Shown here piece after piece: positions 1,835-20,947 of a stretch of DNA of 52,937 nt. Positions within the stretch are counted from its first letter, which is position 1; the number at the start of each line of letters is the position of its first letter. The translations under genes and the position numbers were made by a program. Source of the stretch: a virus (Duplodnaviria; Caudoviricetes); IMG/VR virus record IMGVR_UViG_3300044840_000023, positions 1 to 52,937 of that record; one strand, written 5' to 3'. Below the pieces are notes generated by a model, which did no database searches, had not been told where the DNA came from, and worked only from the letters and a program-made list of their open reading frames with translations.

Positions 1835-4800
1835 ATGTCCGATACCAGCACATTCGGCGGCAGTTTTGGGCCAACCTCGGTTGGTGGTGCTCCGCTATCG
1901 GGGCCTGGGGGCGGCGCGGACGTACCGCCGAACCCCAGCGCACCCGCTCCGCAGGCGCCCCAAGGCATGTTTGGTTCGGGGTTGAGCGTAGGGCCTTTTG
2001 GTCGGCCCACGTACGCGCCGCCCGACCCTAACGCATCGCCGATCGCCAACGCGACCAGCCAGCTACAGCAGGATATCAGTCGCCTCGGGTCCGCCGGAGC
2101 GAGCCCGATCGCCAATTTCTTTGACCCGGACGGGGCGAAGAAAGCGCGCGACGAAGCGCTACAGAAAACACAGCAATTACAGCAACTGAAAGAGAAGCAA
2201 CAGCAACAGACGGATATCCAAAAGCAGGCGACCAACTTCGGCGTGCCGTCCAGTCAGATCAACCCGAATATGACGGGCGACACGATCGATAACTATTTGC
2301 TGGAACAGTACAAACAAGGCGACCCGAACGCGTTCAAAGCGCTGCAGGCGCGCGGCAAAACCGAGTGGCTGCAGGACTACTCGGGCGATTTCATTCAAGG
2401 CCAGGCTACCAACCTTTCCACGGCAAACAACGCCGTGACTGCGCTAAATGCCGCAGGCGACAATCAAGCGGCGTACAAAAGCGCGTTGAAAAGCCTAAAC
2501 CCCAAAGACCGGGACGCGCTCGAAAGGACTTTGCGGCAAGAGGGCGTGCAAGGCGGCATTCCGGACACTGCGGCGAAGTGGACTGCCGCGTCGGCCAAGC
2601 ACGGCGCGGCCTTCGCGCAGATGCGTCAATTCGTTGACCAGCATTTGCGCCAATACCAGAACATGACCAATTTTGACCAGGGCATGCCGAAAGAAGCGGC
2701 TGACAGCATCGCGGCCGGTATCACGCTCGGAAGCACAAGCGAGCCGGCTTTCGACGGCAAAAACGCCAAAATACGCGGCCAGGACGGGCAGCCCGGCGTC
2801 GTCGGCCCCAACGGCTCCGTACGTACGGACAAATTCGGCCTGTCGCCCTCGCAAGGCGGTTGGAACGCGTCGTCGGCCGAACGTCTCGAAAAAAGCGATA
2901 AGATGTTTGCCGGCGAAGACGTGAAAGGCGCGGTTAATCAGTACAACATCGCCAACAAGTTCCTGCATGAGGCGACGAACGACGCCAATTACACGTCGGC
3001 GGCCGGCATTGCGCTGTTGAAAGACACGCTTGGCGGCGTCGGCCGTGACGTGGCGGAAAAGTCGGCCGCGGCGGGCACTACGGGTTTGTCTAAGATGTTT
3101 AGCGACCAGCAAGGCAGTTTCGAAGGGTGGCTGAACAAGGCGCAAGGCGAGCTGGGCGCATACCAAAATTGGAAGAACAAAGGCGGCGTAGGACAACCGC
3201 CCCCCTCGGCGCGCATTTCCGACGAAACGAAGGCGGGTCTGAAAGCAATCGCGCAGGAAAACTATAAATTTGCGAAAGAGCAAGGCGCGGGCCGCTTGAC
3301 TGGCGCCATGCGATACGCCGGACAGATCGGCCGCCCGCTTGAAGACATTCCGCTCGATAAGGACTTGAAAGCGGAGGTTTCGCGCTACCACGAAGAGGGC
3401 CGGATTGACGCCGTTAACGGTTTCAATTCGTACCCGAGCCTCGTACGCGGTAACCAACGGATTTATTTTCAGCAGGGATCGAACGTCAACGGCGCCCAAG
3501 GTCCGCGCGCCCCGATGGCCTTCCCGCAGCCGGGCCAGGACAACACCGATAAACCAATTGCCAGCGCACCTGCCGGCGCGAGTGGCAATCCGCCCGCGGG
3601 GTCACCCCCGCCCTCCTCGGGTCCCGCGGGCGGTCCTAATTCTCCCGTTGCGACACCGGCCGGCGGACCAACGCCAGGCCGCTACGGCGTGCCCCCGGGC
3701 ATGCAGTTGAATACGCCGCAAGCGTTGGACGCCGCGGCTAACCGTACAATTCAAATTGAAAGCGGTTTTAGACCCGGCCAGCAAACGGGTTCGTACAAAG
3801 GTTATGGGCAGTGGTCGGACGATGAAATGCGCCGCCACGGGATTACGGACCCTGACGACTTGGGCCAGACGCAAGCGGCGCTGAAGGCCGATATCCAGAC
3901 GCGCGCTGCGAAGCTGCAGAAAGACGGCCTGCCCGTCACGGCGTCAAACGTCTACTTGATGCACCAGCAAGGCGAAGCCGGGTTAGAGGCGCATTTGCGC
4001 AATCCGGAAGGCAAGGCATGGGAGAACATTTCGCAGTATTACAAATCGCCTGCGATCGCCAAGCAAGCGGTTTGGGGCAACATGACGCCCGAAATGAAAA
4101 AGCAGTTCCCCGGCGGCGTTGATAGCGTCACCTCGGGCGATTTCACGCGTCTATGGCAAGCGCGGTACGACGGGACGGATGGCGTGAAGCACGGTGACGT
4201 GGCGGACGCTGTTAGCGGCCGTCGTTTGGGACTGGCCGCAACCGGACGGACAGCGATGCGCCCAACTAGCATTTTTGACGGCGCGCCGTCTGTGCCGATA
4301 TCGCAGGCCGACGTAAACCCGAACGTGCCGGGGGTCAACCCGGGTTTCGAGCAAGAGGAAGAAAACAAGAAACGCGGCGAAATCAACCCCGGCATGGTCG
4401 GCGGCATGGCGGGCTCGCTCGTTGGCGGACCCGCAGGCGGCGCGGCCGGCGGCGGTGCCGGCCAGATGCTCGAAAACTACATGCGCGGCGACAAGGTATT
4501 GCAGCCGAACGTCGTGGGCAGCGCTGCGTTTGGCGCGGCCGGCGGCATTCCGACTGCGGGCCTGAAGGGCGCAGCGTTGCGCGCGGGCACGGCAGCCGCG
4601 GGAGGCGGCGCACAAGGCGGGCTAGAAAACGGCGTGCCCGGCGCGGTCGCTGGCGCTGTAGAGGGCGGCGTGGGCGCTGCCGTGGGCGAAGGCGTTGGCC
4701 GCGGGGGTGCGGGCGCCGCCAATGCGCTAGACCGCTTCGGGGGCTTCCTTGGCATGGGCGGCCATCAAACCTTCTCACGGCTCACGGGCGAGGCGCAGAA

Positions 4801-5923
4801 GTCCTATTTGGACGCGGCCAATACCGTCGCCAAGGGCAAGCCGGAAAAGCCCGCTTCCCTGCCCGGCGGCGGCCCGAACCAGGTTGCAGAAAAGGCGTTT
4901 GAAGAAAAGCTGGCGAATTACGAAGACGCGGAAAAGCATCTTAAATCGGTGCTCCCGCACGTCAAGCCGGACGAAGCCGCGTACGCTGCACAGCAAGTCG
5001 GCGCGAGCAAAGGCGAAGGTGTAATCGGCCGCCCGGTCGCCGCGGAGATAGCTAGCGCGCAACGGGGCTACGGTGAGCTGCGAAGCGATACCGCCGTTTC
5101 CGGTAAAGCAAGAGGATTAGGTGCCCCCTTGTCGGCAGCGGGCGCAATACCAGACGGCCCGGTATCCCAACTTCGCACGGCTGACAACCCTTCGGGGAAG
5201 GTGCCGTACAGCCCGGAGGTGGAAAAGGCGTTCCACAACGCGGAAATGCTCGCTACCGCTCCCGCACACGGCGGCATCGCGGAGGTAGCGGACAACATCC
5301 TGAAGGCGCGTTCCGAGCTACTGGAACAGGAACGCACGGCGTTGGGAGGGGCGTCGCCGGACACGACCAAGGCCAAGGCTTTGCGCGCCGGAGCGGCTGC
5401 GTTGCGGCCGGAAATAGAACGCACTTTCGTGGCAGCGTTTGGCAAAGACGGCGCTAAAGTTGCGATGCAACGCCTGGACGCGCTGGATGTTCGGTACGCA
5501 CGCGCGATGAAATTGAGCGGTGACGGCGATATTGTCGGCACCATCGTCAAAGGCGGCAAGGCGGGCCGCGAAACCAGTCAAGCCTTCAAGGCGCTGACGA
5601 TGGGCGACGTACAGGCGCAACGTATGATGGACGCACTAGTGTCGTACCGAAAGGGCTACGGCACGAAAGAGCTAGTCACGTACGGCGCTCTGATTGCGGG
5701 CGAGTTACACTTGACGGGTTCGGCGATCGTATCGGTGCCGCTAATCGCTGCCAAGCTGGCGAGCATGCTACGCGACTACACGGTGCAAAAAGGAGCTGGT
5801 CGTCCCATAAAGATGGACACGCTGCTAAACAAGGGGCGCGAGCCCGCGCTAAACTCAGCGGTAGCCGGCCGTGCCGGTGCGGTTGCGGGAGGGCGCGAGG
5901 GCGCGTCACTAGGCATCCCGTAG
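1835..5923 (+). CDS. Large internal virion/DNA-ejection protein with lytic transglycosylase-like domain
   Basis: 1362 aa, Gln/Gly/Ala-rich; IQIESG...GYGQW...YLMHQQG resembles lysozyme-like/SLT motifs; Gly-rich putative membrane segments. Confidence 0.75.
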   Translation: MSDTSTFGGSFGPTSVGGAPLSGPGGGADVPPNPSAPAPQAPQGMFGSGLSVGPFGRPTYAPPDPNASPIANATSQLQQDISRLGSAGASPIANFFDPDGAKKARDEALQKTQQLQQLKEKQQQQTDIQKQATNFGVPSSQINPNMTGDTIDNYLLEQYKQGDPNAFKALQARGKTEWLQDYSGDFIQGQATNLSTANNAVTALNAAGDNQAAYKSALKSLNPKDRDALERTLRQEGVQGGIPDTAAKWTAASAKHGAAFAQMRQFVDQHLRQYQNMTNFDQGMPKEAADSIAAGITLGSTSEPAFDGKNAKIRGQDGQPGVVGPNGSVRTDKFGLSPSQGGWNASSAERLEKSDKMFAGEDVKGAVNQYNIANKFLHEATNDANYTSAAGIALLKDTLGGVGRDVAEKSAAAGTTGLSKMFSDQQGSFEGWLNKAQGELGAYQNWKNKGGVGQPPPSARISDETKAGLKAIAQENYKFAKEQGAGRLTGAMRYAGQIGRPLEDIPLDKDLKAEVSRYHEEGRIDAVNGFNSYPSLVRGNQRIYFQQGSNVNGAQGPRAPMAFPQPGQDNTDKPIASAPAGASGNPPAGSPPPSSGPAGGPNSPVATPAGGPTPGRYGVPPGMQLNTPQALDAAANRTIQIESGFRPGQQTGSYKGYGQWSDDEMRRHGITDPDDLGQTQAALKADIQTRAAKLQKDGLPVTASNVYLMHQQGEAGLEAHLRNPEGKAWENISQYYKSPAIAKQAVWGNMTPEMKKQFPGGVDSVTSGDFTRLWQARYDGTDGVKHGDVADAVSGRRLGLAATGRTAMRPTSIFDGAPSVPISQADVNPNVPGVNPGFEQEEENKKRGEINPGMVGGMAGSLVGGPAGGAAGGGAGQMLENYMRGDKVLQPNVVGSAAFGAAGGIPTAGLKGAALRAGTAAAGGGAQGGLENGVPGAVAGAVEGGVGAAVGEGVGRGGAGAANALDRFGGFLGMGGHQTFSRLTGEAQKSYLDAANTVAKGKPEKPASLPGGGPNQVAEKAFEEKLANYEDAEKHLKSVLPHVKPDEAAYAAQQVGASKGEGVIGRPVAAEIASAQRGYGELRSDTAVSGKARGLGAPLSAAGAIPDGPVSQLRTADNPSGKVPYSPEVEKAFHNAEMLATAPAHGGIAEVADNILKARSELLEQERTALGGASPDTTKAKALRAGAAALRPEIERTFVAAFGKDGAKVAMQRLDALDVRYARAMKLSGDGDIVGTIVKGGKAGRETSQAFKALTMGDVQAQRMMDALVSYRKGYGTKELVTYGALIAGELHLTGSAIVSVPLIAAKLASMLRDYTVQKGAGRPIKMDTLLNKGREPALNSAVAGRAGAVAGGREGASLGIP

Positions 5924-5924
5924 C

Positions 5925-6242
5925 ATGTTCCCTTGGGGCTTCGGCCAAGCACCGCAGAAGCAACTCGCCGAGACGCCGCGAGAAACACTCTTGCGGCGTC
6001 TCGGCGAAGGCGTGCCGGCGGAACTCGCGACCAGAGCTGCGGGCATTGCGTGGGACGAAATCAAAGACGACCCGGACGTAGACCGCGCACTAGCCGAGGG
6101 CGAGATACTGCTTTTCGAACGAACACGAGACAGCGGCGTTACCGGCGCGATACGCGCGGCGATGCGGCAGGAAGCTAAGACTTGGCAGGCGAAGGCGGAC
6201 ATTCCCACGGGAACGACACTTGAGGACTTGCTGCGCGGTTGA
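5925..6242 (+). CDS. Putative terminase small subunit
   Basis: 105 aa; HTH-like LGEGVPAELATRAAGI followed by helical DPDVDRALAEGE, typical of TerS; starts MFPW like TerL. Not adjacent to TerL. Confidence 0.45.
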   Translation: MFPWGFGQAPQKQLAETPRETLLRRLGEGVPAELATRAAGIAWDEIKDDPDVDRALAEGEILLFERTRDSGVTGAIRAAMRQEAKTWQAKADIPTGTTLEDLLRG

Positions 6243-6330
6243 GCATGAACGGCGCCTTGTTGTTCGCATCACGTCGAAGCACTGCCGGCAATTCGTCAAC
6301 GCCGTCCCGTTTTTCCCAAGGCATCGTCAT
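6175..6330 (-). CDS. 51-aa peptide with FtsZ-tail-like motif and two PW motifs (not in the ORF track)
   Basis: Manual translation MTMPWEKRDGVDELPAVLRRDANNKAPFMLNRAASPQVSFPWECPPSPAKS; ATGA-coupled to the upstream gene. Confidence 0.55.
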   Translation of the reverse strand: MTMPWEKRDGVDELPAVLRRDANNKAPFMLNRAASPQVSFPWECPPSPAKS

Positions 6331-6518
6331 TGAAGGTGCCCTTTTTCTCTCAACACGGCGAACGCCGCTTCTAGCTCGGCAACTTCTACGGCGTCTAACA
6401 TGACAACTTGGCCTAAATCGCCCTGAATTATTATCGTGCCATCATGGGCCACCACCGTCAGTTCGTCATTTACTTTTATTTTAGTCATCAGGTCGCGCGC
6501 TGCAGATACCATCGTCAT
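6327..6518 (-). CDS. Hypothetical protein
   Basis: MTMVSAARD... start is ATGA-coupled to a 29-aa hydrophobic ORF at 6515-6604. Confidence 0.55.
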   Translation of the reverse strand: MTMVSAARDLMTKIKVNDELTVVAHDGTIIIQGDLGQVVMLDAVEVAELEAAFAVLREKGHLQ

Positions 6519-6616
6519 TGAGCTACCCATGTGCAGTGCAGACCGTACAGCAGCATTAGCGACAGGGCTGCGAACGTGGCCCAAAACTTAACTTCTAGTG
6601 TCATAACCAACCTCCC

Positions 6617-6895
6617 CTAATCAACAAGCCACCCGGCGGCAACGACTTCTTCAGCACTCTTAAAATCGATGGTTTCGCCATCGCTAGATAGCGTAAAGTA
6701 GCCACCGGGAAGCTTGTGGAGCACGCCGTAGCTGCCTCTCGTGGCGGTGCCCTCAGCGCAGCGACGTATTTCCGCCGTCGTTGCCAGCCCGGTTCGGTTG
6801 TAAATCCGCTCATGTTTCATCGAACACGGCCACAGAACGTTGGTCTCGACGCCCTTTAAGCAGTCCATCGTTATTTGCCGGGCATCCCGTGCCAC
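6617..6895 (-). CDS. Hypothetical protein
   Basis: AAGGAGG RBS before GTG at 6895. Confidence 0.6.
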   Translation of the reverse strand: MARDARQITMDCLKGVETNVLWPCSMKHERIYNRTGLATTAEIRRCAEGTATRGSYGVLHKLPGGYFTLSSDGETIDFKSAEEVVAAGWLVD

Positions 6896-6922
6896 TTGCC
6901 AGCCCTCCTTAATCAATGCGTA

Positions 6923-7030
6923 CGCGTAGTTCCGTACGCTCGATTTGTCAAGCCCCAATATATTGTATGACATAATTGTCACACACACCCCTTGTTGTAT
7001 GACATTTTGTCATCTATACGTGCATTCGAT
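6923..7030. promoter_or_regulatory. Divergent control region: minus-strand TTGACA-17-TACGCG promoter and two TGTATGACA..TGTCA boxes
   Basis: tgtcaa at 6946-6951; TGTATGACATAATTGTCA and TGTATGACATTTTGTCA inverted-repeat boxes. Confidence 0.6.
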
Positions 7031-7066
7031 CGAATTTCACCAAACCCGCCATTAGGAGGTTATTCC

Positions 7067-7813
7067 GTGGTCCAGATCATCAATCAGCCGCTTAACCCCA
7101 ACCTTGGCGGTTTTCGACACTATTCGGGGCTCCTCCCGGTTTCCCCCATGGACGGCGGCCCGCAGGCGCAGGCGTCCGTGCGCGTGTTCCATGTCCCTTC
7201 CGCGAATGCTGCGGCGATCTTCCGCGGTGATATCGCCGTTCTGGCGTCGTCCGCCATTGGTACGCAGGGCGCAGGCGACTTGCCGGCAAACATTTCGGGA
7301 CCGTCCACGTCGGTTGTGATCGGCAACGGCGGCGGCTCGGGGCTGGGCAATCAGTCCATGGCGCCGAACATCACGCGTTGGGTACCCGGCGACACGGCCA
7401 CCACCACCTCGATTATCGCGGGCGTTATCGTCGGCTTTGGCCCGATCACGCTGTACATGGCGAAGAACGGTTTCCAGTTCATCCCCGCTTCGACCGAAGC
7501 TTGGGTTTTCGTCGAAACGGACCCGCAGGTCGAAATGGCCATCACGGTTCCGACCGTGCCTGGCACCGCGTTCAATCTGCTTTTGAACGACGGCGCCGAC
7601 GTACAGGCGAACGCCGGTTTCCAATCGACCCGCTTTGGTATCTCGGGCGTGTCGCTCAACCCGGCCGCCGCGGGTACGGCCACGCTGCCGCTCCGCGTGC
7701 TCTCCAGCGGCATGCAGATAGGCAATGACCCGACTTCGGCGGGCTTCGTCGCAAACGTCATGTTCAACCAAGCGCGGCATTTCCGTGGCGGCGCCGGCTT
7801 CAGCGCCGATTAA
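7067..7813 (+). CDS. Putative capsid cement/decoration protein
   Basis: AGGAGG RBS before GTG 7067; N-terminal NQP..GF..GL.P and AIFRGDIAVL pattern resemble the beta-rich protein usually found just before this MCP type. Confidence 0.6.
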   Translation: MVQIINQPLNPNLGGFRHYSGLLPVSPMDGGPQAQASVRVFHVPSANAAAIFRGDIAVLASSAIGTQGAGDLPANISGPSTSVVIGNGGGSGLGNQSMAPNITRWVPGDTATTTSIIAGVIVGFGPITLYMAKNGFQFIPASTEAWVFVETDPQVEMAITVPTVPGTAFNLLLNDGADVQANAGFQSTRFGISGVSLNPAAAGTATLPLRVLSSGMQIGNDPTSAGFVANVMFNQARHFRGGAGFSAD

Positions 7814-7851
7814 CCCGTAGCGCAACCGCAGCAACGCAAAGGATCACGACC

Positions 7852-8400
7852 ATGAAGAAAATTTTACTGGCCCTCCTCGCGCTGGCCGCAATGCCGGGCG
7901 TCGTGTCGGCGCAAGTCGTCACGAAGCTGCCCGTTGTCCTGCAAAACAACATCGGGCAGGTAGCGGACCTTGGCAACGGCCCGCTGGAAATACGCGTTCT
8001 GCAGGGAGCCGCGCAGCTCTTTACGTCGCAGGGCTCGGGCGTGGGCAGCGTCGCTGCCGGCACTGCGCTGGTCTTGACTGCCACGCCGGCAACCCCGCCG
8101 ATCGTTGGCGGCTTCATTACCTGCAACACGCCGACGAGCTGCACCATCCCGGCAAATACGACCGTGACCGCGTACAACGGCACCACGGGCGTCACCTTGT
8201 CGGCGTCGTCCACCGTGACCGCCGTACAAGTCAATTGGGGCGCAGCGTGCCCGACCACCGAAGGCGGTTTTGCTCCGGTCATGAACGTACAGGCCAATGT
8301 CGGCGCCGACGTGCCGTTGTTCACGCAAGCTCGCATTTGCGGCGCTTCGCAGTACGCGGCCGGCGCTTCAATCCTGCCCTTCGCGATCGGCGCGCACTAA
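7852..8400 (+). CDS. Secreted beta-rich virion-like protein (Sec signal)
   Basis: MKKILLALLALAAMPGVVSA|Q; Thr/Ala-rich; 4 Cys. Confidence 0.75.
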   Translation: MKKILLALLALAAMPGVVSAQVVTKLPVVLQNNIGQVADLGNGPLEIRVLQGAAQLFTSQGSGVGSVAAGTALVLTATPATPPIVGGFITCNTPTSCTIPANTTVTAYNGTTGVTLSASSTVTAVQVNWGAACPTTEGGFAPVMNVQANVGADVPLFTQARICGASQYAAGASILPFAIGAH

Positions 8401-8473
8401 CGAGAACAGTTCCCGGCCCCTCTGCGCGCTTGCGTACGGGCCGGGCTTCCTCTCTTGATCGAAAGGCGCAGCC

Positions 8474-8830
8474 ATGGCCGGCGTGGATATTGCAAATCAG
8501 TTTCCAAACAGCTTCATGGCCCTCGCTGTGAGGCTTGGGCAGTCGCGGTTCATATCGGTGGACGTGCCTGCCACGCCGCAGGGCGGCCAAGTCAATACCA
8601 ACATTTCGGCCACGGGCGGCACGCTTTTGACCGTACCCGCGCTCGCAACCTATGCGGTTATTACCGCGGTTGCCGGGGCGCTATTCGCGACGTACGACGG
8701 TTCGGCGCCAAGCGCGACAAACTTCGACGTACAGGTCGCGCAAGGCGCGCAGCTCCCCGTACAGGGCGCGCGGGCGCTCGCCGCAATCAAGGTGTTTGGC
8801 ACCGAAATGAGCGTCAGCTATTGGAGTTGA
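8474..8830 (+). CDS. Small beta-sandwich virion/adaptor protein without signal peptide
   Basis: C-terminal ~65 aa paralogous to the C-terminus of 16929-17618 (TVPA.ATYAV.TAV.G.LFATYDGS.PS...MSVSYW). Confidence 0.7.
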   Translation: MAGVDIANQFPNSFMALAVRLGQSRFISVDVPATPQGGQVNTNISATGGTLLTVPALATYAVITAVAGALFATYDGSAPSATNFDVQVAQGAQLPVQGARALAAIKVFGTEMSVSYWS

Positions 8831-8831
8831 C

Positions 8832-10403
8832 ATGCGCAGACTTATCGCGGCGCTCGCTTTCGTACTGACATTTGCGCCCGCGCTCGCCCAAAACGGCCTG
8901 CCCGGCGCTCCAGGCGCGCAGGTGCCGAACAGCCCGGGCGGCAGCGGCGGCAGCACCAATCTTGCAGGCCTCGGTTCGGGAGTATGGGGCGTTTCGACCA
9001 CGGCAAACGGGAATGGTTATGCGCCGGGCGATAGCTACACACCCTCCATTCCCGGAGCGACCGCCAATTCTATTCTAAGTGGCGCATATAACAATGCCGT
9101 GCTATATGTTGCGACTACTCAGGTTGTTTCGGCGACAGTCGCGGCGGGAGGATCAGCCTGCACGGGGACGACCGCGACATTAACCGGAACGACTGGAACT
9201 GGCGGCAGTGGAGCCTTCTTCACGGCCACAGCCCCGGTTTCCGGTGGTGCAATTCAAAGCCCTGTCACGATTACGTCGGGCGGCAGTTATCGAACCAACC
9301 CAACTTCAATTTCGGCCGAGCCAGTTACGGGCAGTTCATGCAGCGGTGCGCAGCTCACACTGGTCATGGGCGTGCAATTTGCAAACGTTCAAAACCCCGG
9401 AAGTTATTCGGCGATCGCAGGGGCGTCTGCCTCGGTCACTCAATCTGCAACCAGCGGTGCGGGAGCTGGTGCAACTTTCACACTGACCTTCGCTCCATAC
9501 GGGCTTCTTATTCCTCCAACAAACTCACCCAATTTCGGCGCGCAGAACGTCAATCAGGCCGCCTACAATTTTTGCGCAGGCTATCTTTGTTTGAATGCAA
9601 ATACGTCAGGGGTAGAGAATACGGCGTTCGGATGGTCGGCATTAGCGTTCGATACGACCGGATCGTACAACACCGGCTTTGGTGTTCATGCGCTGGGCGC
9701 GGCCCTGACGACCGGGAGTAATAATACAGGTGTAGGCGTTGATGCTGGTCGAAACCTCACGACGGGAAATTCGAATACGTTCGTCGGTCTTAGTGCGGGG
9801 CTAAATTCCGCCGCTGCGTTCAGCAATACGGTTGTCGGCTCGGGAGCCATGACCGCCGCGACGACTTCAATTCAGAACACTGTTGTTGGCACTTCTGCCG
9901 GTAACAATCTTACCGGATCAAACAATACTGTTGTCGGCTTTAATTCCGGTGGAAAAATCTCGTCGGGGGCCAGCAATATCGCCATAGGTCCGACTGTCGC
10001 CACTGTAACACTGACTACAGGAAATCACAATGTCCTCATTGGAACGTCTAGCGCCGTAGATACAGTCGCGTCGAACACATCTAACGAAATAAATATTGAA
10101 AATCTGCTGTTCTTCAATAGCGCAAGCACCGCCGCGCCCGCGCTATCAGCCTGCGGGACAGGCTCCCCCACGGTCGATACGCATGGCAATAACCGCTCTG
10201 GCACTATCACGGCGGGCGCCGGGACGCTTGCTTCTTGCCTGATGACCTTTGCTGGTTCCGGCTATGCGACATGGAACCACTGTCGCGTGACATCGCAGTC
10301 GGCTGTTGCATCGTTTGCCTATAGCTACACGCTGACGACGCTGACCGTGACTGGCACGTCGATCACATCAGATAAATTCGATTATGACTGCGACGGATTA
10401 TGA
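8832..10403 (+). CDS. Secreted fibre/adhesin-like protein with NTxxG repeats
   Basis: Signal MRRLIAALAFVLTFAPALA|QNGLPG; NTAFG/NTGFG/NTFVG/NTVVG repeats as in tail fibres and autotransporter heads; 8 Cys. Confidence 0.75.
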   Translation: MRRLIAALAFVLTFAPALAQNGLPGAPGAQVPNSPGGSGGSTNLAGLGSGVWGVSTTANGNGYAPGDSYTPSIPGATANSILSGAYNNAVLYVATTQVVSATVAAGGSACTGTTATLTGTTGTGGSGAFFTATAPVSGGAIQSPVTITSGGSYRTNPTSISAEPVTGSSCSGAQLTLVMGVQFANVQNPGSYSAIAGASASVTQSATSGAGAGATFTLTFAPYGLLIPPTNSPNFGAQNVNQAAYNFCAGYLCLNANTSGVENTAFGWSALAFDTTGSYNTGFGVHALGAALTTGSNNTGVGVDAGRNLTTGNSNTFVGLSAGLNSAAAFSNTVVGSGAMTAATTSIQNTVVGTSAGNNLTGSNNTVVGFNSGGKISSGASNIAIGPTVATVTLTTGNHNVLIGTSSAVDTVASNTSNEINIENLLFFNSASTAAPALSACGTGSPTVDTHGNNRSGTITAGAGTLASCLMTFAGSGYATWNHCRVTSQSAVASFAYSYTLTTLTVTGTSITSDKFDYDCDGL

Positions 10404-10458
10404 TCGAAATCCGCTTCTACGATAACCGCCCTCCGCTCGTGATCTATACGGGGAAGAA

Positions 10459-10755
10459 ATGAAAAAGCTTTTTGCGCTAATGAAGACCGGGCTCATTTTA
10501 GCGCTTATCGCACTGGTCGCGGCAGTCACGCTAGCGTCGGCGCAGAACGGGCTGCCCGGTGTCGGTACGCAAATGCCGGGCGTCGGGAACCAGATACCAA
10601 ACGGCGTATGCGACGAAATATCGAGCCCCAACTGTACGCAATTCTCGGGCGGCCAGACCGTTGCGCCGCCGCCCGCCACCAACTGCCCGTCAACCGGCGT
10701 CTTCAATCTCGGAAACGTCTGCAATGACATTTACTTCATAGGAGCGATGCGGTGA
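10459..10755 (+). CDS. Small secreted protein sharing the mature N-terminus QNGLPG with 8832
   Basis: Hydrophobic signal ending ASA|QNGLPG; 4 Cys. Confidence 0.7.
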   Translation: MKKLFALMKTGLILALIALVAAVTLASAQNGLPGVGTQMPGVGNQIPNGVCDEISSPNCTQFSGGQTVAPPPATNCPSTGVFNLGNVCNDIYFIGAMR

Positions 10756-11732
10756 AAAAACTCGCCCTCATTATTGCTTTCCTAATCGGAAGCGTCGGCA
10801 GCGCCGCGGCGATCTGTGCGGGTCCGGCCGTGATGCACGATTTCCCGGGCGGCACATTCAACATGAGCCTCGCAACGAACGCGGGCGACGGCAACTGCGC
10901 ATCGAATATCGGGATTATCGGAACACTGCCACCGTTCGCCGCCCCGCCGACTGTCAATCTAGGGACGATCGGCGGCGCAGCGACGGCCGCGAACCAGGCC
11001 ACGGCGCAAACTTCGCTTGGTACGATTGCCACCAACTCGGGCACGCAAGCGACGGCGGCGGGCCAAGCCACGGGGAATGCGTCCCTCGCGACAATCGCCA
11101 CCAACTCGGCAGCGCAGGCGACCGCGGCCAACCAGGCCACGGCAAACACGTCGCTTGGTACTATCGCCACCAACTCGGCAACGCAGGCGACCGCCGCTAA
11201 CCAGACGATCATACATAATGATCTCGTCACGTTAAATGCCACGGCGGGGGGCCCGGTCCCCGCAGGAACTAACAACATCGGCAAGTTCGATATCGACGCT
11301 GCCAGCCCCGGGCTTAATCCCTTGGGGCCTGCGGCGGTTTCTAATTCAGTACCGCACATAAACAGTTCTCAGTATCCCGCCAATAATGTCACGACGACGC
11401 CAACGCCGCTCGGGGCACATGGCGCGGGTTCAACTGCCGCAGTCACCGGCACGTTAACCCCGGCCTCGACAGCGACCGCCTATGTCTGCGGTTTTAGCTT
11501 CTCGGCCATAGGCGGCACGGCGAACCCGGGGCCTCTAGTTCTCTCGGGCGTGTTGGGCGGTCCTTTCACCTACCAGCTCGCGCCGAACTCGGCGACCATC
11601 GGGCAGAACTTCTTTCAGCCGTTTAGCCCTTGCTTGCCAGCGTCCGCCGTTAACACCCCGATCGTCGTCACAACGACGGCAGCCGCCGGCGCGACGGCAA
11701 CCGATGTCAATATGTGGGGCTACGGCCTATGA
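10752..11732 (+). CDS. Secreted fibre-like protein with 23-aa repeats
   Basis: Signal MKKLALIIAFLIGSVGSAAA; ATAANQATAQTSLGTIATNS repeats; 4 Cys. Confidence 0.75.
   Translation: MKKLALIIAFLIGSVGSAAAICAGPAVMHDFPGGTFNMSLATNAGDGNCASNIGIIGTLPPFAAPPTVNLGTIGGAATAANQATAQTSLGTIATNSGTQATAAGQATGNASLATIATNSAAQATAANQATANTSLGTIATNSATQATAANQTIIHNDLVTLNATAGGPVPAGTNNIGKFDIDAASPGLNPLGPAAVSNSVPHINSSQYPANNVTTTPTPLGAHGAGSTAAVTGTLTPASTATAYVCGFSFSAIGGTANPGPLVLSGVLGGPFTYQLAPNSATIGQNFFQPFSPCLPASAVNTPIVVTTTAAAGATATDVNMWGYGL
10980..11207 (+). repeat. Intragenic tandem repeat, 69-bp unit, about 3.3 copies
   Basis: ATAANQATAQTSLGTIATNSGTQ / ATAAGQATGNASLATIATNSAAQ / ATAANQATANTSLGTIATNSATQ / ATAANQT. Confidence 0.85.
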
Positions 11733-12640
11733 TGAAGTTGCTTCGGATTTTGCTGCTTTCTGCGCTGTGCTGTTTTCAGGGGTATCCTGTATTCGCAGGG
11801 CAGTTTTTCGGCTGGCTTGCGCCCGGCGCGACTTGCACGGGCGGCACGAGAACAACTGCCGGCGGCAATACGATCATCACGTTCACGGCGAGCGGGACGT
11901 TGACATGCAGCGGGTCAGTCAGTGCGCAAGTGTTGGTAGTTGCCGGCGGCGGTGGTGGAAACGAGGGCGGCGGCGGCGCGGGCGGTTATTGCACAACTGT
12001 CGGAACACCAACTTGCGGCTTGGGCTCCAGCTTCACAGTCCCGCCAGGCTCGACATCGATCACGGTTGGCGGGGGCGGTGCGGGGGTTGTTTCAAATAAC
12101 GGCATCAATACGGCTTCGAACGGTTCCAATTCCGTCCTCTCAACTATCACCGCCAACGGCGGCGGCGCGGGCGGCATTGTCAATGGCACGCCCGCGGCCG
12201 GCGGGTCAGGCGGCGGTTGCGGAGGGCAAGGCGGCTCCGGGTGCCCCGTTGGCGGCACCGGAAGCCAAGGTCAGAACGGCGGCGCAACGACAGCGTTTGC
12301 GTTTCCGTTCCCCGCAGCGGGCGGCGGTGGTGCTGGTGTCGTCGGTTCGGCGGGCGCAGGATCGGCGGGCGGCGCGGGAGGCAACGGCGTAAGTAATTCG
12401 ATCACCGGCTCCGCTGTCACCTACGCGGGCGGCGGCGGTGGTGCCGTTGACAGCGGCGGAGCCGGTACTGGTGGTGCGGGGGGTACGGGCGGCGGTGGCG
12501 CTGGGGGCGCCTCGGCAGCCGGGGTCAACGGAACCGCCAATACCGGGGGCGGTGGCGGCGGCACCGACAATTTCGGATTTTCGGGCGGCACGGGTGGCAG
12601 TGGCATCGTGATCATCAGCTGCATCACGGGGCTATGCTAA
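11729..12640 (+). CDS. Secreted glycine-rich adhesin-like protein
   Basis: Signal ending PVFA; VLVVAGGGGG...ITVGGGG...NTGGGGGG...GGSGIVII is the phage glycine-rich domain; 8 Cys in the mature part. Confidence 0.8.
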   Translation: MMKLLRILLLSALCCFQGYPVFAGQFFGWLAPGATCTGGTRTTAGGNTIITFTASGTLTCSGSVSAQVLVVAGGGGGNEGGGGAGGYCTTVGTPTCGLGSSFTVPPGSTSITVGGGGAGVVSNNGINTASNGSNSVLSTITANGGGAGGIVNGTPAAGGSGGGCGGQGGSGCPVGGTGSQGQNGGATTAFAFPFPAAGGGGAGVVGSAGAGSAGGAGGNGVSNSITGSAVTYAGGGGGAVDSGGAGTGGAGGTGGGGAGGASAAGVNGTANTGGGGGGTDNFGFSGGTGGSGIVIISCITGLC

Positions 12641-15051
12641 TGATGAAACGTCGCGATTTCCTGACAGGCGCATCAGCGGCAGCCATCGCTTCCCTGGCCA
12701 AAGAAGCAAAGAGCGGCATGGCTCTTCATGGCGGTGGTGGCGGAGGCGGCGGAAATTGGGTTCCGGGCGACCGTCCGTTCGCGGCATCGTCTCCCATCAA
12801 TCAGCCGCTGCCTGCCAATTCCATCCTGACACCTCTCCCTTGGCCCGCATACGACGGCTCAAACAGGTGGGTCAGCGCCAAGATTGTTTTCGATATTCCT
12901 AACCTGGCTACTGCGCCGTTCCGTGTCATTGATTTGCTTAATTTCTCTTGGAATCTCCCTCCCGGAAACTTAGCCCCGCGCCAGATGACGTCGGGGTTCA
13001 CTTATACTACGATAAGCGGCGATACCGATCACGAAGTCTGCTCCATTATCGGGAATGATTGCGCCAGTTATTGGCTTTTTGACAGCGGCGGTATTCCTAC
13101 CAGTGACACAGTAGGGGATTGCGAAGCGGTCGGATTTTCTGACCTTGTGGTGGATTCAGGTTTTGGCACACCGCCCGTCGGATCAACGCTGAATGCCGGT
13201 GTCTATGGCAGCGGCCAGAGCTGTTTTGCCGGACTTCAACTTAAGGAAGAGTATGTAAAGCAGGGAGCTATCAACCATGTCGTTGCCATAAGCTGTCAAA
13301 ATTTTCTGGTTAATGCGAACCCCGGTCTTTTTCCAGCCATCGCCAATGATGGCAGCAGCACCAATGGGTTCTTTGTCGAATGTCAACTCCTGGCTATTCC
13401 TGCTGGCACAACAATGCCTAGCGGACTTACATCTTTTGGCCAGATACTCTTCACGACCTTGCAGAATTACGGGGCCATGGTTTCCGATTTCGGCCCGACT
13501 ACAGCGTTTTATTACGGGCTTAGTTATAACGCCCCGTCAGGAAGTTTTAACGGCGATGACCTGTATGGCGTCCCTCAGTTTTCATCGAATCCGAGTTTAC
13601 TGAATGATGCTATTGCTCTTATCCCTCTGCTCCAGAAGGTGGGCTACGTCTTTGACGGCTTCCAGGATGTGTTCACTTATGTAGGAACCTTCTCGCCGCA
13701 ATTATCGCTGCTTGCCTATACGGGCGCAGCAATGCATGTCACGCGGGACAGCGGCGGATCGCAGGACATCAACTTCACCTCTGCGCCTCAGTCACTTCTC
13801 GATACCGCGTCAATCGCATCGTTCGGGTCTGGAACGACCGTCAGAGTAGCGACCTACTACAACCCGATGAAAGCTGACCCTTTCAATGCAGGCGCTATCG
13901 ATTTTGTTTCGGCTGGATCATTGGCGCCGATCATCTATCAGTCTGGGGCGCTCGTCACCGCCAATAGCCGTCCAGCCATGCTGTTCGATGGCGCCACCAA
14001 TTACCTGAAGATGGCCGCCACGTCGGCATTCTATCCTTTTACCGGCACTGCGTATCTGCACGCGGTGGTGCAACTGACCGATTATCTCGCCAACTACACC
14101 CTCGACAGCGGCGATACGGCGGGGTGTCTTGAACTTCGGATCGACCAGACAACCGGATTCGTTCGGCTGCTGGCAAACGGCGGGACTACCATCGGTGTCA
14201 GCACTGGTTTTCAGGTGCCAACGTCAGGCCCGGTATTGATCAGCGCAACTTACGATCCATCCGGCGCCTACGCTATTTTCATCAATGGCATCGTTGTGGT
14301 GCAATCGCCTACGGCTTCTCATGTCGCGATCACTTCGGCCAACGTCCAGATTGGAGCAGGACCCGGTCCTGCCGGGTTCTTCAAGGGAAAAATACTAGCG
14401 GCGGGCGTCATGTTTGTTGCGCCTCCTTTCAACAATGTTCAGACCATCATCGAGACATACCTGGCTAACTTCTTCGGGCCACTGGCTGCGGTTACCGCCA
14501 ATACGACCACGTTCGATCCTACCAGGAGCACGCCACAGCTCTCCTACTTCAATAACAACCTGACCGTTTTCGAAAACTTCGGTTTTTCCGCTATCGCATA
14601 TGGGACAGTCTCCAAGACTGCGGGCATCTGGTACAACGAGTTTACCTGCAACGTCGCCAACGGCAATGATTCCATTGGAATAGCGAACACAAGCGCATCC
14701 AGCATTCTTCAGTGGTCGTCCAACGGCCAAATCTTTATCAACGGCACATTCAGCGGCATCACCATCGGAACATGGGGCACAGGAAGCTTCCTCGCGCAAG
14801 TGGTCAATTTCACCACACAGAAGGTATGGTTCGGGGTCATTGTCGCGGGCGCCGTTCTTTGGAACAACGATGTTCTCGCCAATCAAAATCCGGCAACGGG
14901 AGTTGGCGGTATCAGCTTCTCGGCATTGACCGGCGCTCTTTTCCCGATTGCCGTCCCCGGCGCTTTCGGCTCTGAGTTAACCGCGAATTTCGGCGCAATG
15001 GCTTATCGGAATGCCGCCATCGTTCCTTCAAATGCGGTAAACTGGCAATGA
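12640..15051 (+). CDS. Tat-signal multidomain protein with LamG/ConA-like and C-terminal SPRY-like domains
   Basis: KRRDFLTG twin-arginine motif; FDGATNYL...FKGKI LamG-like segment; GIWYNEFT..IGIA..LFPIA..TANFG SPRY-like segment; 8 Cys. Confidence 0.7.
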   Translation: MMKRRDFLTGASAAAIASLAKEAKSGMALHGGGGGGGGNWVPGDRPFAASSPINQPLPANSILTPLPWPAYDGSNRWVSAKIVFDIPNLATAPFRVIDLLNFSWNLPPGNLAPRQMTSGFTYTTISGDTDHEVCSIIGNDCASYWLFDSGGIPTSDTVGDCEAVGFSDLVVDSGFGTPPVGSTLNAGVYGSGQSCFAGLQLKEEYVKQGAINHVVAISCQNFLVNANPGLFPAIANDGSSTNGFFVECQLLAIPAGTTMPSGLTSFGQILFTTLQNYGAMVSDFGPTTAFYYGLSYNAPSGSFNGDDLYGVPQFSSNPSLLNDAIALIPLLQKVGYVFDGFQDVFTYVGTFSPQLSLLAYTGAAMHVTRDSGGSQDINFTSAPQSLLDTASIASFGSGTTVRVATYYNPMKADPFNAGAIDFVSAGSLAPIIYQSGALVTANSRPAMLFDGATNYLKMAATSAFYPFTGTAYLHAVVQLTDYLANYTLDSGDTAGCLELRIDQTTGFVRLLANGGTTIGVSTGFQVPTSGPVLISATYDPSGAYAIFINGIVVVQSPTASHVAITSANVQIGAGPGPAGFFKGKILAAGVMFVAPPFNNVQTIIETYLANFFGPLAAVTANTTTFDPTRSTPQLSYFNNNLTVFENFGFSAIAYGTVSKTAGIWYNEFTCNVANGNDSIGIANTSASSILQWSSNGQIFINGTFSGITIGTWGTGSFLAQVVNFTTQKVWFGVIVAGAVLWNNDVLANQNPATGVGGISFSALTGALFPIAVPGAFGSELTANFGAMAYRNAAIVPSNAVNWQ

Positions 15052-15473
15052 CTGACGGTATGCTGCTATATGTGCCGATTTTCGTTAGCGGCATCACGCT
15101 TTTAGTCATGGTCGCGGAAAAGATTTTCGGCGGTGGCAACGCGCTCGCGGCCAAATTTCACAAACTGGACAAAGACACGACCGAAGCCATTGCGCAGGTT
15201 GAACGTTCGCTGCGTACCAAAATTGATGAGTACGAGGACAACTACACCGTGGGCGCCGACGCCGTACGTTCTAACATCCACGCCCTTCAAATGGGGTTGC
15301 TGGAGTTTCGCGCCAAAATGGCCGAGGAGTACGTTGCCAAAGGCGGCTTGGACGACATCAAGCAAGACATGCGCCGGGGCTTCGAAGCCGTAGACAAGCG
15401 AATGGGCGAGCTTCAGGACATGATAATGTGGGCAAGGCCGGACGGCGACCGCACGCACCAGAAACCGCGCTAG
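15048..15473 (+). CDS. Membrane-anchored coiled-coil protein (possible lysis accessory)
   Basis: N-terminal TM helix followed by coiled coil. Confidence 0.65.
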   Translation: MTDGMLLYVPIFVSGITLLVMVAEKIFGGGNALAAKFHKLDKDTTEAIAQVERSLRTKIDEYEDNYTVGADAVRSNIHALQMGLLEFRAKMAEEYVAKGGLDDIKQDMRRGFEAVDKRMGELQDMIMWARPDGDRTHQKPR

Positions 15474-16928: not shown

Positions 16929-17618
16929 GTGGCCGGCTTCGATAACGGAACATTGCAGGGCGGGGTCTTTTTCCAGGCGAAGCAATTCGGTTCGGTTTTG
17001 CGCGGCTTCGGCCCCCCGGTGCCGCAAGCTGGTGTTGTTGGTGATTTGTACATCGACGTACAGACGTTCAATCTCTACGAAAAGCGGTCAACCGACGCAA
17101 CCGACCCGTGGGGCAACTTCATTTTCGTGGTGCCGAGCGCGCAACAGGCGCAGCTCAAATGGTTCGTGCCGTCCGCTCCGACGAACGACATCGGTGTGAA
17201 CGGCGACTATGCCCTGCTTTGGGCCGGCTTCCCGAACTACGGCCTGCAACCCTTGATCTTTGGACCGAAGGCGGCCGGCGCATGGCCGACAAGCCCGGCA
17301 GCCGTCGCCGTCTCGCTTAACCCCCTCTATACCGCGGAGAACTCAGTCAACGTGGGCGCAACAAACATAGTTTCGGGCGAGCAGAACAACGTTTCGATTG
17401 CAGCGGCCACCGGGCTCACGGTCCCAGCAACCGCAACCTACGCCGTAGTTACGGCAGTCGGCGGGCCGCTGTTCGCCACGTACGACGGCAGCACGCCAAG
17501 TTCCACAAATTTCGCGATGCAGGTCGCGCAAGGCGGGTCGCTGCCCGTACAAGGCGGGGCCACGCTGCTAGCCATCAAGGTTATCGGCACGCAAATGAGC
17601 GTGAGCTATTGGAACTAG
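16929..17618 (+). CDS. Tail fibre/spike-associated protein, paralog A
   Basis: GFGPP..AGVVGDLYID motif; N-terminal half duplicated in 17620; C-terminal domain shared with 8474. Confidence 0.7.
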   Translation: MAGFDNGTLQGGVFFQAKQFGSVLRGFGPPVPQAGVVGDLYIDVQTFNLYEKRSTDATDPWGNFIFVVPSAQQAQLKWFVPSAPTNDIGVNGDYALLWAGFPNYGLQPLIFGPKAAGAWPTSPAAVAVSLNPLYTAENSVNVGATNIVSGEQNNVSIAAATGLTVPATATYAVVTAVGGPLFATYDGSTPSSTNFAMQVAQGGSLPVQGGATLLAIKVIGTQMSVSYWN

Positions 17619-17619: not shown

Positions 17620-18246
17620 ATGTTCGATAACGGGACATTGCAGGGCGGGGTTTTCTTCCAAGCAAAGCAGTTTGGATCAATCCTGCGCGGCTTTGGGCCG
17701 CCTGTACCGCAGGCGGGCGTTGTCGGCGATTTGTACATGGATGCACAGACTTTCAAGCTTTTCGAGAAACGCGCGACCAGCGGCACGGACCCGTGGGGTC
17801 ACTCCCTTTTCGTGGTGCCGGCGCTGTATCAAAGTTCGCTGAAGTGGTTCACCGCGTCGCAGATTACAGACGATATCGGGGTGCCCGGCGACTACGCGCT
17901 GCTTTGGGCGGGGTTCGGAAACTACGGAGTGCAGCCGTCGATTTTTGGGCCGAAGACGAACGGTGCGTGGCCCGAAAACGGCAACGGCCCCGGCACCGTG
18001 ATCGATCCGACCTTTGCGGGCGCAGCGTTGCCGGCCGGCCTGGTGGACGAAGGCCCGCCGATTGCTTTCAGCACGTCAACGCAGCTCGTTGTCGCCGGCC
18101 TGGTGGACGAGTTCATTCTTGCTGTTCCGTCACCACTACCGATCGCGGGCAGCCCCGTTCTGCAGCAAGGGCTGCGGAGCCTACCGCTTAACGTGACCGT
18201 GACGCTTAACTCGCTATTGCTAGTCGAGGCTGTAAATGAGCTATAA
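17620..18246 (+). CDS. Tail fibre/spike-associated protein, paralog B
   Basis: Near-identical N-terminus FDNGTLQGGVFFQAKQFGS to 16929. Confidence 0.7.
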   Translation: MFDNGTLQGGVFFQAKQFGSILRGFGPPVPQAGVVGDLYMDAQTFKLFEKRATSGTDPWGHSLFVVPALYQSSLKWFTASQITDDIGVPGDYALLWAGFGNYGVQPSIFGPKTNGAWPENGNGPGTVIDPTFAGAALPAGLVDEGPPIAFSTSTQLVVAGLVDEFILAVPSPLPIAGSPVLQQGLRSLPLNVTVTLNSLLLVEAVNEL

Positions 18247-19352: not shown

Positions 19353-19883
19353 ATGACGTTCAAAATTCCGCTTTCGCAAATCAAGTCGGCCGACGAGTTC
19401 GCCGCAGATGTTGCGGCCTATATCAAGGCCAAGAAAGACCATCAAAAGACGACCGGCGAGCCCGCGCCAACTGCGGCCCCGATGGTCGAAGCTGCCGTAC
19501 GCGTCGTTCCGGGTTCGATCGAGGAACAGCGCGCCGACGATTACGTGGCCGATTACAGCGTGGAAGACGACACGCCCCCGCCCCCGTCGTTTGAGGATCG
19601 CAAGGCCGCGCTCGTCCTGTCGATACGTGACGAAGGCGAGGCACGCATTGCGAAGTTCTTTCCGCCGCTGAAGCGCAATCACATGCACATGCTGGTGTCG
19701 CGTGCGTCCCGCGTCGAAGAAGACAAACGCACGAACGAGCAAAAGGCGGTCCTCGCGCATATGCAAGACATCGCGGAGCGTGCGGACGCGATACAGTTTC
19801 ACGTCGCGGAACAGCAAGCCGCGGTCCACGACTTGACCGCCGAAACCATTGACGATTGGGCCCCGGAGCCGTTCCCGTCATGA
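19353..19883 (+). CDS. Putative tail fibre assembly chaperone
   Basis: Directly follows the fibre gene; helical with a Trp-Pro-containing C-terminal end. Confidence 0.5.
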   Translation: MTFKIPLSQIKSADEFAADVAAYIKAKKDHQKTTGEPAPTAAPMVEAAVRVVPGSIEEQRADDYVADYSVEDDTPPPPSFEDRKAALVLSIRDEGEARIAKFFPPLKRNHMHMLVSRASRVEEDKRTNEQKAVLAHMQDIAERADAIQFHVAEQQAAVHDLTAETIDDWAPEPFPS

Positions 19884-20820: not shown

Positions 20821-20947
20821 GTGATGCCTTTGAAGCCGGACGCGTTCGGTTAAGCCATTGAGGGCTAGACGGAACCGGAAGTCTGCCGGGGATAAGGGCA
20901 TCCGGTCCCGTCGTTGCTGGCCCTGAGCGCCACATTTATGGCCGAAA

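Follow-up and report, generated by a model that had tools for sequence, protein, structure and literature searches.

The genome of virus record IMGVR_UViG_3300044840_000023 was analysed over its whole length of 52,937 bp (hereafter the window); it carries direct terminal repeats and is rated 100% complete. The present analysis concerns six genes between positions 7852 and 15051, designated by their first positions, whose late products resemble the fibres, spikes and decoration proteins of phage particles. Judging from their sequences, these six proteins are very probably exported and oxidatively folded: five begin with a Sec-type leader and one with a putative twin-arginine (Tat) leader, and every mature protein has an even, non-zero number of cysteines. 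The leader and cysteine pattern had been reported in a preliminary description of this DNA and was confirmed. It is quite possible, if short of probable, that the exported proteins dock onto the particle at lysis. The genes of the cluster are listed below (a slash marks the predicted cleavage site), together with one leaderless gene lying among them.

7852..8400, + strand: predicted exported protein of 182 aa; Sec leader MKKILLALLALAAMPGVVSA/Q; 4 mature cysteines; all-beta jelly-roll with an inserted domain
8474..8830, + strand: leaderless, cysteine-free protein of 118 aa within the cassette; its stop lies 1 nt before the start of 8832
8832..10403, + strand: predicted exported fibre- or spike-like protein of 523 aa; Sec leader ending in APALA/QNGLPG; 8 cysteines; NTxxG repeats
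10459..10755, + strand: predicted exported protein of 98 aa; Sec leader ending in TLASA/QNGLPG; 4 cysteines
10752..11732, + strand: predicted exported protein of 326 aa; Sec leader ending in GSAAA/IC; 4 cysteines; 23-aa repeats; variable C-terminus
11729..12640, + strand: predicted exported glycine-rich protein of 303 aa; Sec leader MMKLLRILLLSALCCFQGYPVFAG/Q; 8 mature cysteines
12640..15051, + strand: protein of 803 aa; putative twin-arginine leader (MMKRRDFLTGASAAAIASLA); N-terminal domain at about residues 45-335, lectin domain at 335-615, beta-rich C-terminal domain; 8 cysteines

Leaders, cysteines and domains of the cluster

All six open reading frames (ORFs) are present at the starts given in the preliminary description; 10752 begins with GTG, the starts of 11729 and 12640 are internal ATGs within slightly longer ORFs, and a Shine-Dalgarno-like stretch is found upstream of most of them. 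Sec leaders were called with a heuristic rule of our own, which demands a best 10-residue Kyte-Doolittle window of at least 2.0, preceded by K/R and followed by an AxA-type site, and the absence of D/E. According to this rule 7852, 8832, 10459, 10752 and 11729 carry Sec-type leaders with AxA cleavage motifs, as had been described. The rule was positive for five of the six cluster genes vs only 2 of the 51 other called ORFs (Fisher p=2.9e-5), namely 20404-21006 and 23867-24613, both on the - strand. A mature N-terminal Gln is predicted for four of the five Sec proteins, and 8832 and 10459 have the mature N-terminal QNGLPG in common. The claim of a twin-arginine signal on 12640 was only partly upheld. 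The N-terminus of this protein (MMKRRDFLTGASAAAIASLAKEAK) is a textbook-looking twin-arginine leader, in which KRRDFL is followed by TGASAAAIASLA, with a mild h-region, and by KEAK; however, the Pfam family TAT_signal (PF10518) matched residues 1-18 below its cut-off (E 0.037, 14.4 vs 22.7 bits), and an NCBIfam search returned no match for the leader. A lipoprotein leader cleaved by signal peptidase II (lipobox L-[AS]-[GA]-C) was also considered for 10752 and rejected. This protein reads SAAA-I-C and its relatives mostly A-T-C or A-A-C after the AxA site, so that at most some of them could fit the lipobox, because the -1 residue is I or T in many.

Counted after the most likely cleavage site, the mature proteins contain 4, 8, 4, 4, 8 and 8 cysteines in gene order, in agreement with the earlier counts; whole-protein totals are 4, 8, 4, 4, 10 and 8, two of the ten cysteines of 11729 lying within its leader. 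The seven leaderless proteins that had been named as cysteine-free (7067, 8474, 16345, 16929, 17620, 18236 and 33974) indeed have none. More broadly, none of the 12 + strand proteins without a leader that lie between 1835 and 19883 contains cysteine, whereas all six leader proteins do (Fisher p=5.4e-5).

The cluster genes abut or overlap, as stated previously, with stop/start positions of 8830/8832, 10755/10752, 11732/11729, 12640/12640 and 15051/15048, and they share a tightly packed late operon with leaderless structural-type genes. Neither promoter-like sites (6 vs 6.0 expected from shuffles) nor terminator-like sites (27 vs 25.9) were in excess.

The domains of the cluster are of virion-surface types, comprising tailspike repeats, a concanavalin-like lectin, a decoration-like fold and a glycine-rich domain. 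The NTxxG region of 8832, which had been likened to virion appendages, is matched by the tail spike family phrog_4636 (E 5.4e-16) and, over residues ~220-460 only, by annotated tail fibres in 39 phage records (tblastn), while a PDB sequence search gave chance-level rows only. The possibility that 8832 is a YadA-type trimeric autotransporter adhesin was rejected, as no Pfam family was found at E up to 1 and hence no YadA-type anchor. The 23-aa repeat of 10752 was recovered as a 69-bp unit in 3.3 copies (10979-11204), and the glycine-rich character of 11729 as Pfam PF21722 Gly_rich_2 (residues 56-297, 54.1 bits vs a cut-off of 24.3). The latter protein also matches the middle of the 1183-position profile of phrog_2295 (E 3.8e-40). 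For 10459 no family match was obtained in PHROGs, Pfam or NCBIfam, and the NCBIfam search of the cluster proteins as a whole gave chance-level matches only.

The AlphaFold2 (AF2) model of 12640 is mediocre (pLDDT 65.4), but residues 335-615 are clearly modelled as a concanavalin-like sandwich. Their best match is 1wd3_A, the catalytic domain of a GH54 arabinofuranosidase (Z 22.7, rmsd 3.0 Å over 263 residues; Foldseek E 2.1e-11), followed by the Pan3 tailspike 9vyh_q (Z 18.7), sialidase CBM40 (Z about 15) and CBA120 TSP2 (Z 13.6). Of the LamG/SPRY assignment made earlier, the concanavalin-like domain was thus borne out, while the SPRY-like label comes only from PF00622 in the homologue P0002. 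The N-terminal domain (~45-335) has invariant D130, E204, H213, D237 and D283; no fold match for it was visible in the two fold-search lists, both of which were filled by lectin-domain matches. Based on these sequence and model comparisons, 8832 and 12640 both appear to contain domains of the phage tail fibre or tailspike type.

In the AF2 model of 7852 (pLDDT 86.4) an all-beta sandwich, jelly-roll- or cupin-like, carries an inserted domain at residues 60-130. Its best fold match among 48,161 PDB representatives is 8eci (Z 7.9, rmsd 1.5 Å over 63 residues, 32% identity), with a profile match at E 0.19, and weaker matches to the inserted domain come from chains of tail tubes, tail tips and tailspikes. 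With this model, Foldseek returned no PDB match at E <= 0.001 and a single weak one in BFVD. A PDB sequence search gave chance-level rows only with the larger 7852-family alignment (A3), and one with another alignment (A1) gave no match.

Homologue families, related loci and genome context

Leaders were found to be conserved among relatives in four families (7852, 10752, 8832 and 12640), which is the point on which the preliminary description had made its claim depend. An exhaustive HMMER search yielded 79 representatives of the 7852 family, 64 of them leader-positive by the strict rule; most of the failures show a visible leader and were excluded by D/E or a non-Met start. In most relatives the counterpart of the 182-aa protein 7852, aligned from its residue 1, makes up only the first ~160 residues of a chain of 400-1100 aa. 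The protein 7852 thus corresponds to a conserved N-terminal module standing by itself, which in these relatives is extended by long, variable distal parts rich in cysteine. Residues A20 and Q21 of the cleavage site (AxA followed by Q) as well as C133 and C163 are invariant in 24/24 aligned sequences. Cysteines at two further pairs of positions are gained and lost jointly: 84/87 are both present in 19/24 and both missing in 5/24, 91/97 are both present in 5/24 and both missing in 19/24, and neither pair is ever represented by a single cysteine.

A similar picture emerged for the 10752 family, in which 88 of the 119 homologues are leader-positive. Behind their leader lies a nearly unchanging loop (C-x-x-PAVMHDF...FNMSLAT...GNC), which in 10752 extends from Cys22 to Cys49, both of them conserved in 20/20 aligned sequences; the sequence beyond the loop is highly variable. 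Mature parts of leader-positive members have an even cysteine count in 81/88 cases (median 4), whereas 13 of the 28 clearly leaderless members have no cysteine at all (median 1; Mann-Whitney U test, p=7.8e-13). Homologues of the N-terminal region of 8832 are leader-positive in 13/31 cases, with 2-16 cysteines (median 10), and leaderless in 17/31, with 0-6 cysteines (median 2; p=2.3e-5). Close homologues in this family (P0217, P0218 and P0219) carry Pfam PF13884, which we take to be the C-terminal intramolecular chaperone of phage fibres and endosialidases; the first two are leader-positive by the rule, and P0219 shows, by eye only, a leader after a later start. Leaderless relatives of 8832 include tail-sheath proteins with PF04984. 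As for 12640, 13 homologues with 40-50% identity were found, comprising two with RR leaders (P0004 and P0007), one ambiguous (P0011), seven complete leaderless proteins with other N-terminal domains, and three fragments.

Leaderless relatives are cysteine-poor in three of the four families (7852, 10752 and 8832), in contrast to 12640. The earlier inference that these proteins are exported and disulfide-folded is strengthened by the leaders kept in large families, the invariant cleavage site, the paired gain and loss of cysteines and the cysteine-poor leaderless relatives. Even cysteine number as a sign of the periplasm, on the other hand, holds for the five Sec proteins and not for 12640.

The genes flanking the cluster are the following:

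7067..7813, + strand: leaderless, cysteine-free protein at the upstream flank of the cassette; GTG start within ORF 6992-7813
15048..15473, + strand: protein of 141 aa with one N-terminal membrane helix, a coiled-coil remainder and no cysteine; its start overlaps the stop of 12640
16929-17618, + strand: leaderless, cysteine-free fibre gene, downstream flank
17620-18246, + strand: leaderless, cysteine-free fibre gene, downstream flank
18236-19342, + strand: leaderless, cysteine-free tail-fibre gene with a Collar domain (Pfam Collar and 13 tail PHROGs), downstream flank

A locus search with the 7852-family alignment retrieved 15 related viral contigs, between 5 and 98 kb long and mostly of 38-58 kb; as L011 nearly duplicates L012, and L017 nearly duplicates L018, 13 of the loci are distinct. 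In all 15, the gene right after a leaderless homologue of 7067 (70-77% identity) encodes a homologue of 7852 (41-52%) that bears a leader and is free-standing. Conserved flanks consist of homologues of 1835 and 5925 upstream and of 15539, 16345, 17620/16929 and 18236 downstream, and between them the cassette content differs from phage to phage in the 13 distinct loci. With a crude ORF caller, 30 leader-bearing ORFs were counted in these loci, 26 of them with an even, non-zero number of mature cysteines and none cysteine-free; two further N-termini are of the RR type, and 21 of the 57 other ORFs, many of which are probably spurious, have no cysteine. The RR leader recurs at L011 13622-14749. 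Three loci found through the 10752 family (L006, L007 and L008) contain runs of four to five leader-bearing, cysteine-rich genes, which in L006 and L007 come after three large cysteine-poor proteins.

Pfam matches on 32 proteins of the related cassettes were sparse and mostly below curated cut-offs. Those above them include Big_7 (42.2 bits vs a cut-off of 24.1) and, on a protein with an RR leader, GH26 (23.6 vs 20.2 bits); GDSL/SGNH, GH43 and BNR/sortilin matches fell below. A collagen match was also obtained. In L015, the protein at 9956-12400 starts with the 7852 module behind a Sec leader and has a pectate-lyase-like/NosD part, again below Pfam cut-offs. An unrelated viral contig of 58.9 kb (L003) encodes a leaderless 800-aa homologue of 12640 (5200-7602) in a run following the capsid gene, a position that suggests head fibres or decoration. 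The same run (861-7602) also contains three small beta proteins and, by eye, a large LamG/SGNH-like ORF and a small SPRY-like protein. Among 50,697 GenBank phage records, tblastn of 7852, 10752, 11729 and 12640 found no relative, and blastn of the whole cluster against GenBank phages found no match; locus searches with the single proteins 12640 or 8832 returned no loci.

The preliminary description placed the cluster directly behind a capsid cement gene. The position of 7067 directly upstream was verified; however, the cement label is only a lead from the ESM Atlas, where the nearest named clusters are phage cement at 0.82-0.84. PDB sequence searches gave no match for ORF 6992 and chance-level rows only for the 7067 alignment. 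The start at 7067 is probably the true one, because homologues begin at the matching residue. Within the cassette, 8474 has homologues (57% identity) in 3/15 related loci, and its C-terminal half copies the C-terminus of fibre 16929 (75% DNA identity, 8644-8825 vs 17432-17613). The first ~45 residues are common to 16929 and 17620, and the fibre genes of L009-L014 have conserved N-terminal modules and swapped C-termini. Judging from these sequences, modules appear to be shuffled between the cassette and the conventional fibres of the phage, which are 16929, 17620 and 18236. Downstream of the cluster, 15048 matches phrog_7885 and phrog_462 weakly, and a similar gene of 86 aa lies within the L006 cluster (9020-9280); the product of 15048 could be a membrane-anchored partner or a spanin-like or accessory lysis part.

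A conserved leaderless, cysteine-free protein of ~103 aa (MVANPIKTIPRSYQSW...) was also observed in the related cassettes (L010 10564-10866, L013 10516-10827, L015 7754-8065, L017 10456-10767, L021 3795-4106 and L022 3311-3622). The stop of its gene overlaps the start of a leader-bearing protein with a conserved mature start (...LIVSACGTLP), and the two form a recurrent cytoplasmic/exported coupled pair like 8474/8832.

The remainder of the genome is of the short-tailed-phage type and, according to PHROG and Pfam matches, codes for a family-A DNA polymerase, primase-helicase, gp2.5-type single-stranded DNA-binding protein, exonuclease and integrase. The closest deposited relatives of its capsid protein (28-36% identity) are short-tailed Pelagibacter and Roseobacter phages, Caulobacter phages and uncultured records. 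Other features of the window are:

19856-20407: M15-type endolysin, without leader or membrane helix (PHROG/Pfam)
21415-23064: large terminase (PHROG/Pfam)
28524-29483: major capsid protein (Pfam Phage_capsid_4)
33974-34720: leaderless tail-fibre protein (PHROG/Pfam)
50992-52296: integrase (PHROG/Pfam)

On the - strand, the product of 23867-24613 has 248 aa, begins with a Sec-type leader (MLKKVFAAAAIAAALLSPARA/AD), ends in ...IAVVF and lacks cysteine; from its sequence it looks like an outer-membrane beta-barrel, a Lom-like phage cargo, with no match in Pfam, PHROG or NCBIfam. Upstream of the cluster, the gene at 1835-5923 encodes a cysteine-free protein of 1362 aa whose N-terminus is rich in Gly and Pro. 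This protein matches nothing in PHROG or Pfam and is probably an internal or ejection protein; its homologues (29-47% identity) lie upstream of the cassette in L009, L010, L011, L013 and L014. Further upstream, 920-1459 encodes a 179-aa protein with nine cysteines and no family match, and the next gene (1523-1747) a 74-aa protein made up almost entirely of three hydrophobic helices.

Possible fates of the predicted exported proteins

According to the reading that we favour, five genuine Sec substrates and one Tat substrate would, with high probability, be made late from an operon of leaderless structural proteins. Cleavage at the AxA sites, leaving an N-terminal Gln on four of them, would be followed by folding in the periplasm, where host Dsb enzymes would close the cysteine pairs; this step is well supported for the five Sec proteins. 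More tentatively, the products may be add-ons on the outside of the particle: spikes and fibres that bind or cut glycans, and a decoration-like protein, all of which would combine a conserved N-terminal part for docking with a swappable distal part. Since the endolysin is leaderless, lysis should start with a holin that opens the inner membrane, and holin-first lysis, which lets particles meet periplasmic proteins, is established lysis biology. Particles built in the cytoplasm and proteins waiting in the periplasm could then mix and dock before the outer membrane breaks, with the conserved leaderless neighbours 7067 and 8474 as candidate docking partners. Such a scheme would constitute a second, periplasmic assembly line, in which Sec/Tat-exported, Dsb-locked appendages are stored in the periplasm and snap onto the particle between holin opening and outer-membrane rupture; we regard it as possible, though less likely than not. 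Under this scheme the host-recognition gear would depend on the export and disulfide machinery of the host. A virion role is favoured by the structural late operon with its translational coupling and by the invariant 7067-7852 pair, as well as by the combination of conserved N-terminal module and swappable distal parts, which is the design of receptor-binding proteins. It is also favoured by the decoration-protein fold match of 7852, the tailspike matches of 8832 and 12640, and the occurrence of the same domains without leaders in the structural module of another phage (L003) and in tail-sheath proteins.

A number of observations weigh against this reading. The leader calls come from a crude rule of our own, and the TAT_signal match of 12640 is below its cut-off. 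The decoration-like fold of 7852 is a lead and not a family assignment, because all Z scores are below 8. Leaderless relatives of 12640 carry 5-15 cysteines, so that the even count of this protein is no evidence for periplasmic folding; it fits a Tat substrate folded before export. Similarly, a leaderless 660-aa fibre with an 18236-type N-terminus in L009 (18323-20305) has 16 cysteines and is an exception to the occurrence of cysteines only behind leaders. A rough FastTree built from the mature 10752-family sequences implies no fewer than 12 changes of leader state, with only four independent contrasts on supported branches; cysteines changed in the same direction in about 2.7 of these four and in the opposite direction in none, which is not significant (median p 0.25). 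The large row counts given above are therefore partly shared ancestry. In L009 and L022, genes directly 3' of the 7852 homologue encode Wzy_C-like (O-antigen ligase/polymerase) polytopic membrane proteins, which are not virion parts (10616-11599, E 3.8e-4, and 2205-3266, E 2.9e-6, respectively, both below cut-off). The exported set is not needed for adsorption, because the phage has the leaderless fibres 16929, 17620, 18236 and 33974. Finally, we know of no described route by which periplasmic parts join the particle of a tailed phage.

A rival view is that the proteins are exported and never enter the particle, acting instead, in the periplasm or after release, as glycan-binding and glycan-cutting proteins on the envelope polysaccharides of the infected or lysogenic cell. 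Trimming of capsule, exopolysaccharide (EPS) or O-antigen might allow progeny to escape, prevent re-adsorption to debris or exclude rival phages, and the cluster would be a phage-borne counterpart of WceF, a Tat-exported enzyme with a tailspike fold that is no virion part (PMC7949094). The GH26 domain behind an RR leader and the weaker GDSL/SGNH, GH43, BNR/sortilin and pectate-lyase-like matches agree with such a role, as do the Wzy_C-like proteins of two related cassettes, the further exported outer-membrane-type protein at 23867-24613, the complete set of leaderless fibres and the temperate nature of the phage, with its integrase. However, the genes belong to the structural operon expressed late, their stops overlapping the starts that follow, and promoter- and terminator-like sites are at chance level. 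In addition, a soluble enzyme has no obvious need for an N-terminal module common to many variable proteins, 7852 and 10459 are small non-enzymatic beta proteins, and Sec or Tat export alone reaches the periplasm and not surface receptors. We thus consider an action on the envelope a serious alternative, yet a somewhat improbable one. The integrase, the outer-membrane-type protein elsewhere in the genome and the hypervariable content between conserved flanks in 13 distinct loci, which is reminiscent of moron hot spots, would also suit lysogenic-conversion cargo, in which prophage-expressed morons give the lysogen new adhesins or surface structures, much as in the second option of the preliminary description. 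This is clearly unlikely, given the translational coupling to late genes, the absence of promoter- and terminator-like sites above chance, and the lack, in Pfam, NCBIfam and PHROG scans, of any additional component for secretion, anchoring or usher function. Moreover, the 10752 and 12640 families are absent from the 185,579 species-representative genomes searched, which indicates that prophages of sequenced bacteria do not commonly carry them.

It could also be argued that the hydrophobic N-termini are no export signals, but uncleaved anchors or chance, and that the cysteines oxidise only after release. The preliminary description had taken disulfides to form in the periplasm, a premise that has to be softened: leaderless virion proteins can also form disulfides after release, as in a siphovirus tail tube and in the sheath and baseplate of Milano (PMC13576161). 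The crudeness of the leader rule and the cysteine-rich leaderless fibre of L009 point in the same direction. Nevertheless, the K/R n-region, the h-region and the invariant AxA followed by Q are kept across hundreds of divergent homologues, leaders and cysteines are associated in three families, and five such N-termini stand in a row vs 2/51 elsewhere. We consider this view very unlikely.

To our knowledge, all textbook assembly of tailed phages is cytoplasmic, and no report of tailed phages that route their fibres or spikes through Sec or Tat was found in the open full-text literature searched. The present data make a testable question concrete, namely whether tailed phages have a periplasmic assembly step. 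If periplasmic appendages are routine, virion maturation has an unrecognised last step at lysis. In that case phage infectivity and host range would depend on host factors such as Sec, Tat, signal peptidase and DsbA, receptor-binding proteins of this kind would have to be expressed in the periplasm when produced heterologously, and annotation pipelines would err for such phages wherever they count a signal peptide against a structural role. If, conversely, the proteins never enter the particle, they represent a large, diversifying arsenal of phage-encoded exported glycan-active proteins and a barely described route of envelope remodelling during infection.

Comparison with known systems

The proteins of the cluster differ from all described spikes, fibres and decoration proteins by their Sec/Tat leaders and paired cysteines. 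Modular spikes and fibres of short-tailed phages, such as P22 gp9 and T7 gp17, are leaderless and fold in the cytoplasm. The cluster resembles them in its location in a late operon and in the combination of a conserved N-terminal module with a swappable glycan-binding or glycan-cutting distal part, and domain types are shared as well, since the lectin domain of 12640 is similar to the tailspike of Cyanopodophage Pan3 (PDB 9vyh) and 8832 matches tail-spike PHROGs. What sets it apart are five Sec leaders and one putative Tat leader, all on proteins with paired cysteines.

Among filamentous phages, pIII and pVIII are virion proteins with Sec leaders; pIII needs periplasmic disulfides, and assembly takes place at the membrane with extrusion of the particle. 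The cluster is similar in that its phage proteins bear leaders and paired cysteines. However, the present phage is tailed and has genes for a capsid, the portal region, a terminase and an endolysin, so that its particle is built in the cytoplasm, unlike those of filamentous phages. Host export is also used by Sec and signal-arrest-release (SAR) endolysins, spanins and Llp/Cor-type lipoproteins, which are small, uniform and encoded by one or two genes, whereas here large proteins of the fibre, spike and lectin types form a hypervariable run and the endolysin is leaderless. One example of a Sec-leader endolysin has been described (PMC8951688).

The decoration protein of Arthrobacter phage Bridgette (8eci), a chain of 126 aa, is comparable only to residues 60-130 of 7852; the match covers one inserted domain and lies below the Z limit for chance arrangements. 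Finally, WceF of Pantoea stewartii is a trimeric enzyme with a tailspike fold that is exported by Tat and shortens the cell's own exopolysaccharide (PMC7949094). The likeness would consist in an exported tailspike-type protein behind a Tat leader, which is putative in 12640. In contrast, WceF is encoded by a single chromosomal gene of an EPS cluster and has a beta-helix fold, while here six genes lie in a phage late operon, five of the six proteins use Sec, and 12640 is concanavalin-like, with no beta-helix detected in fold searches whose lists were filled by the lectin domain.

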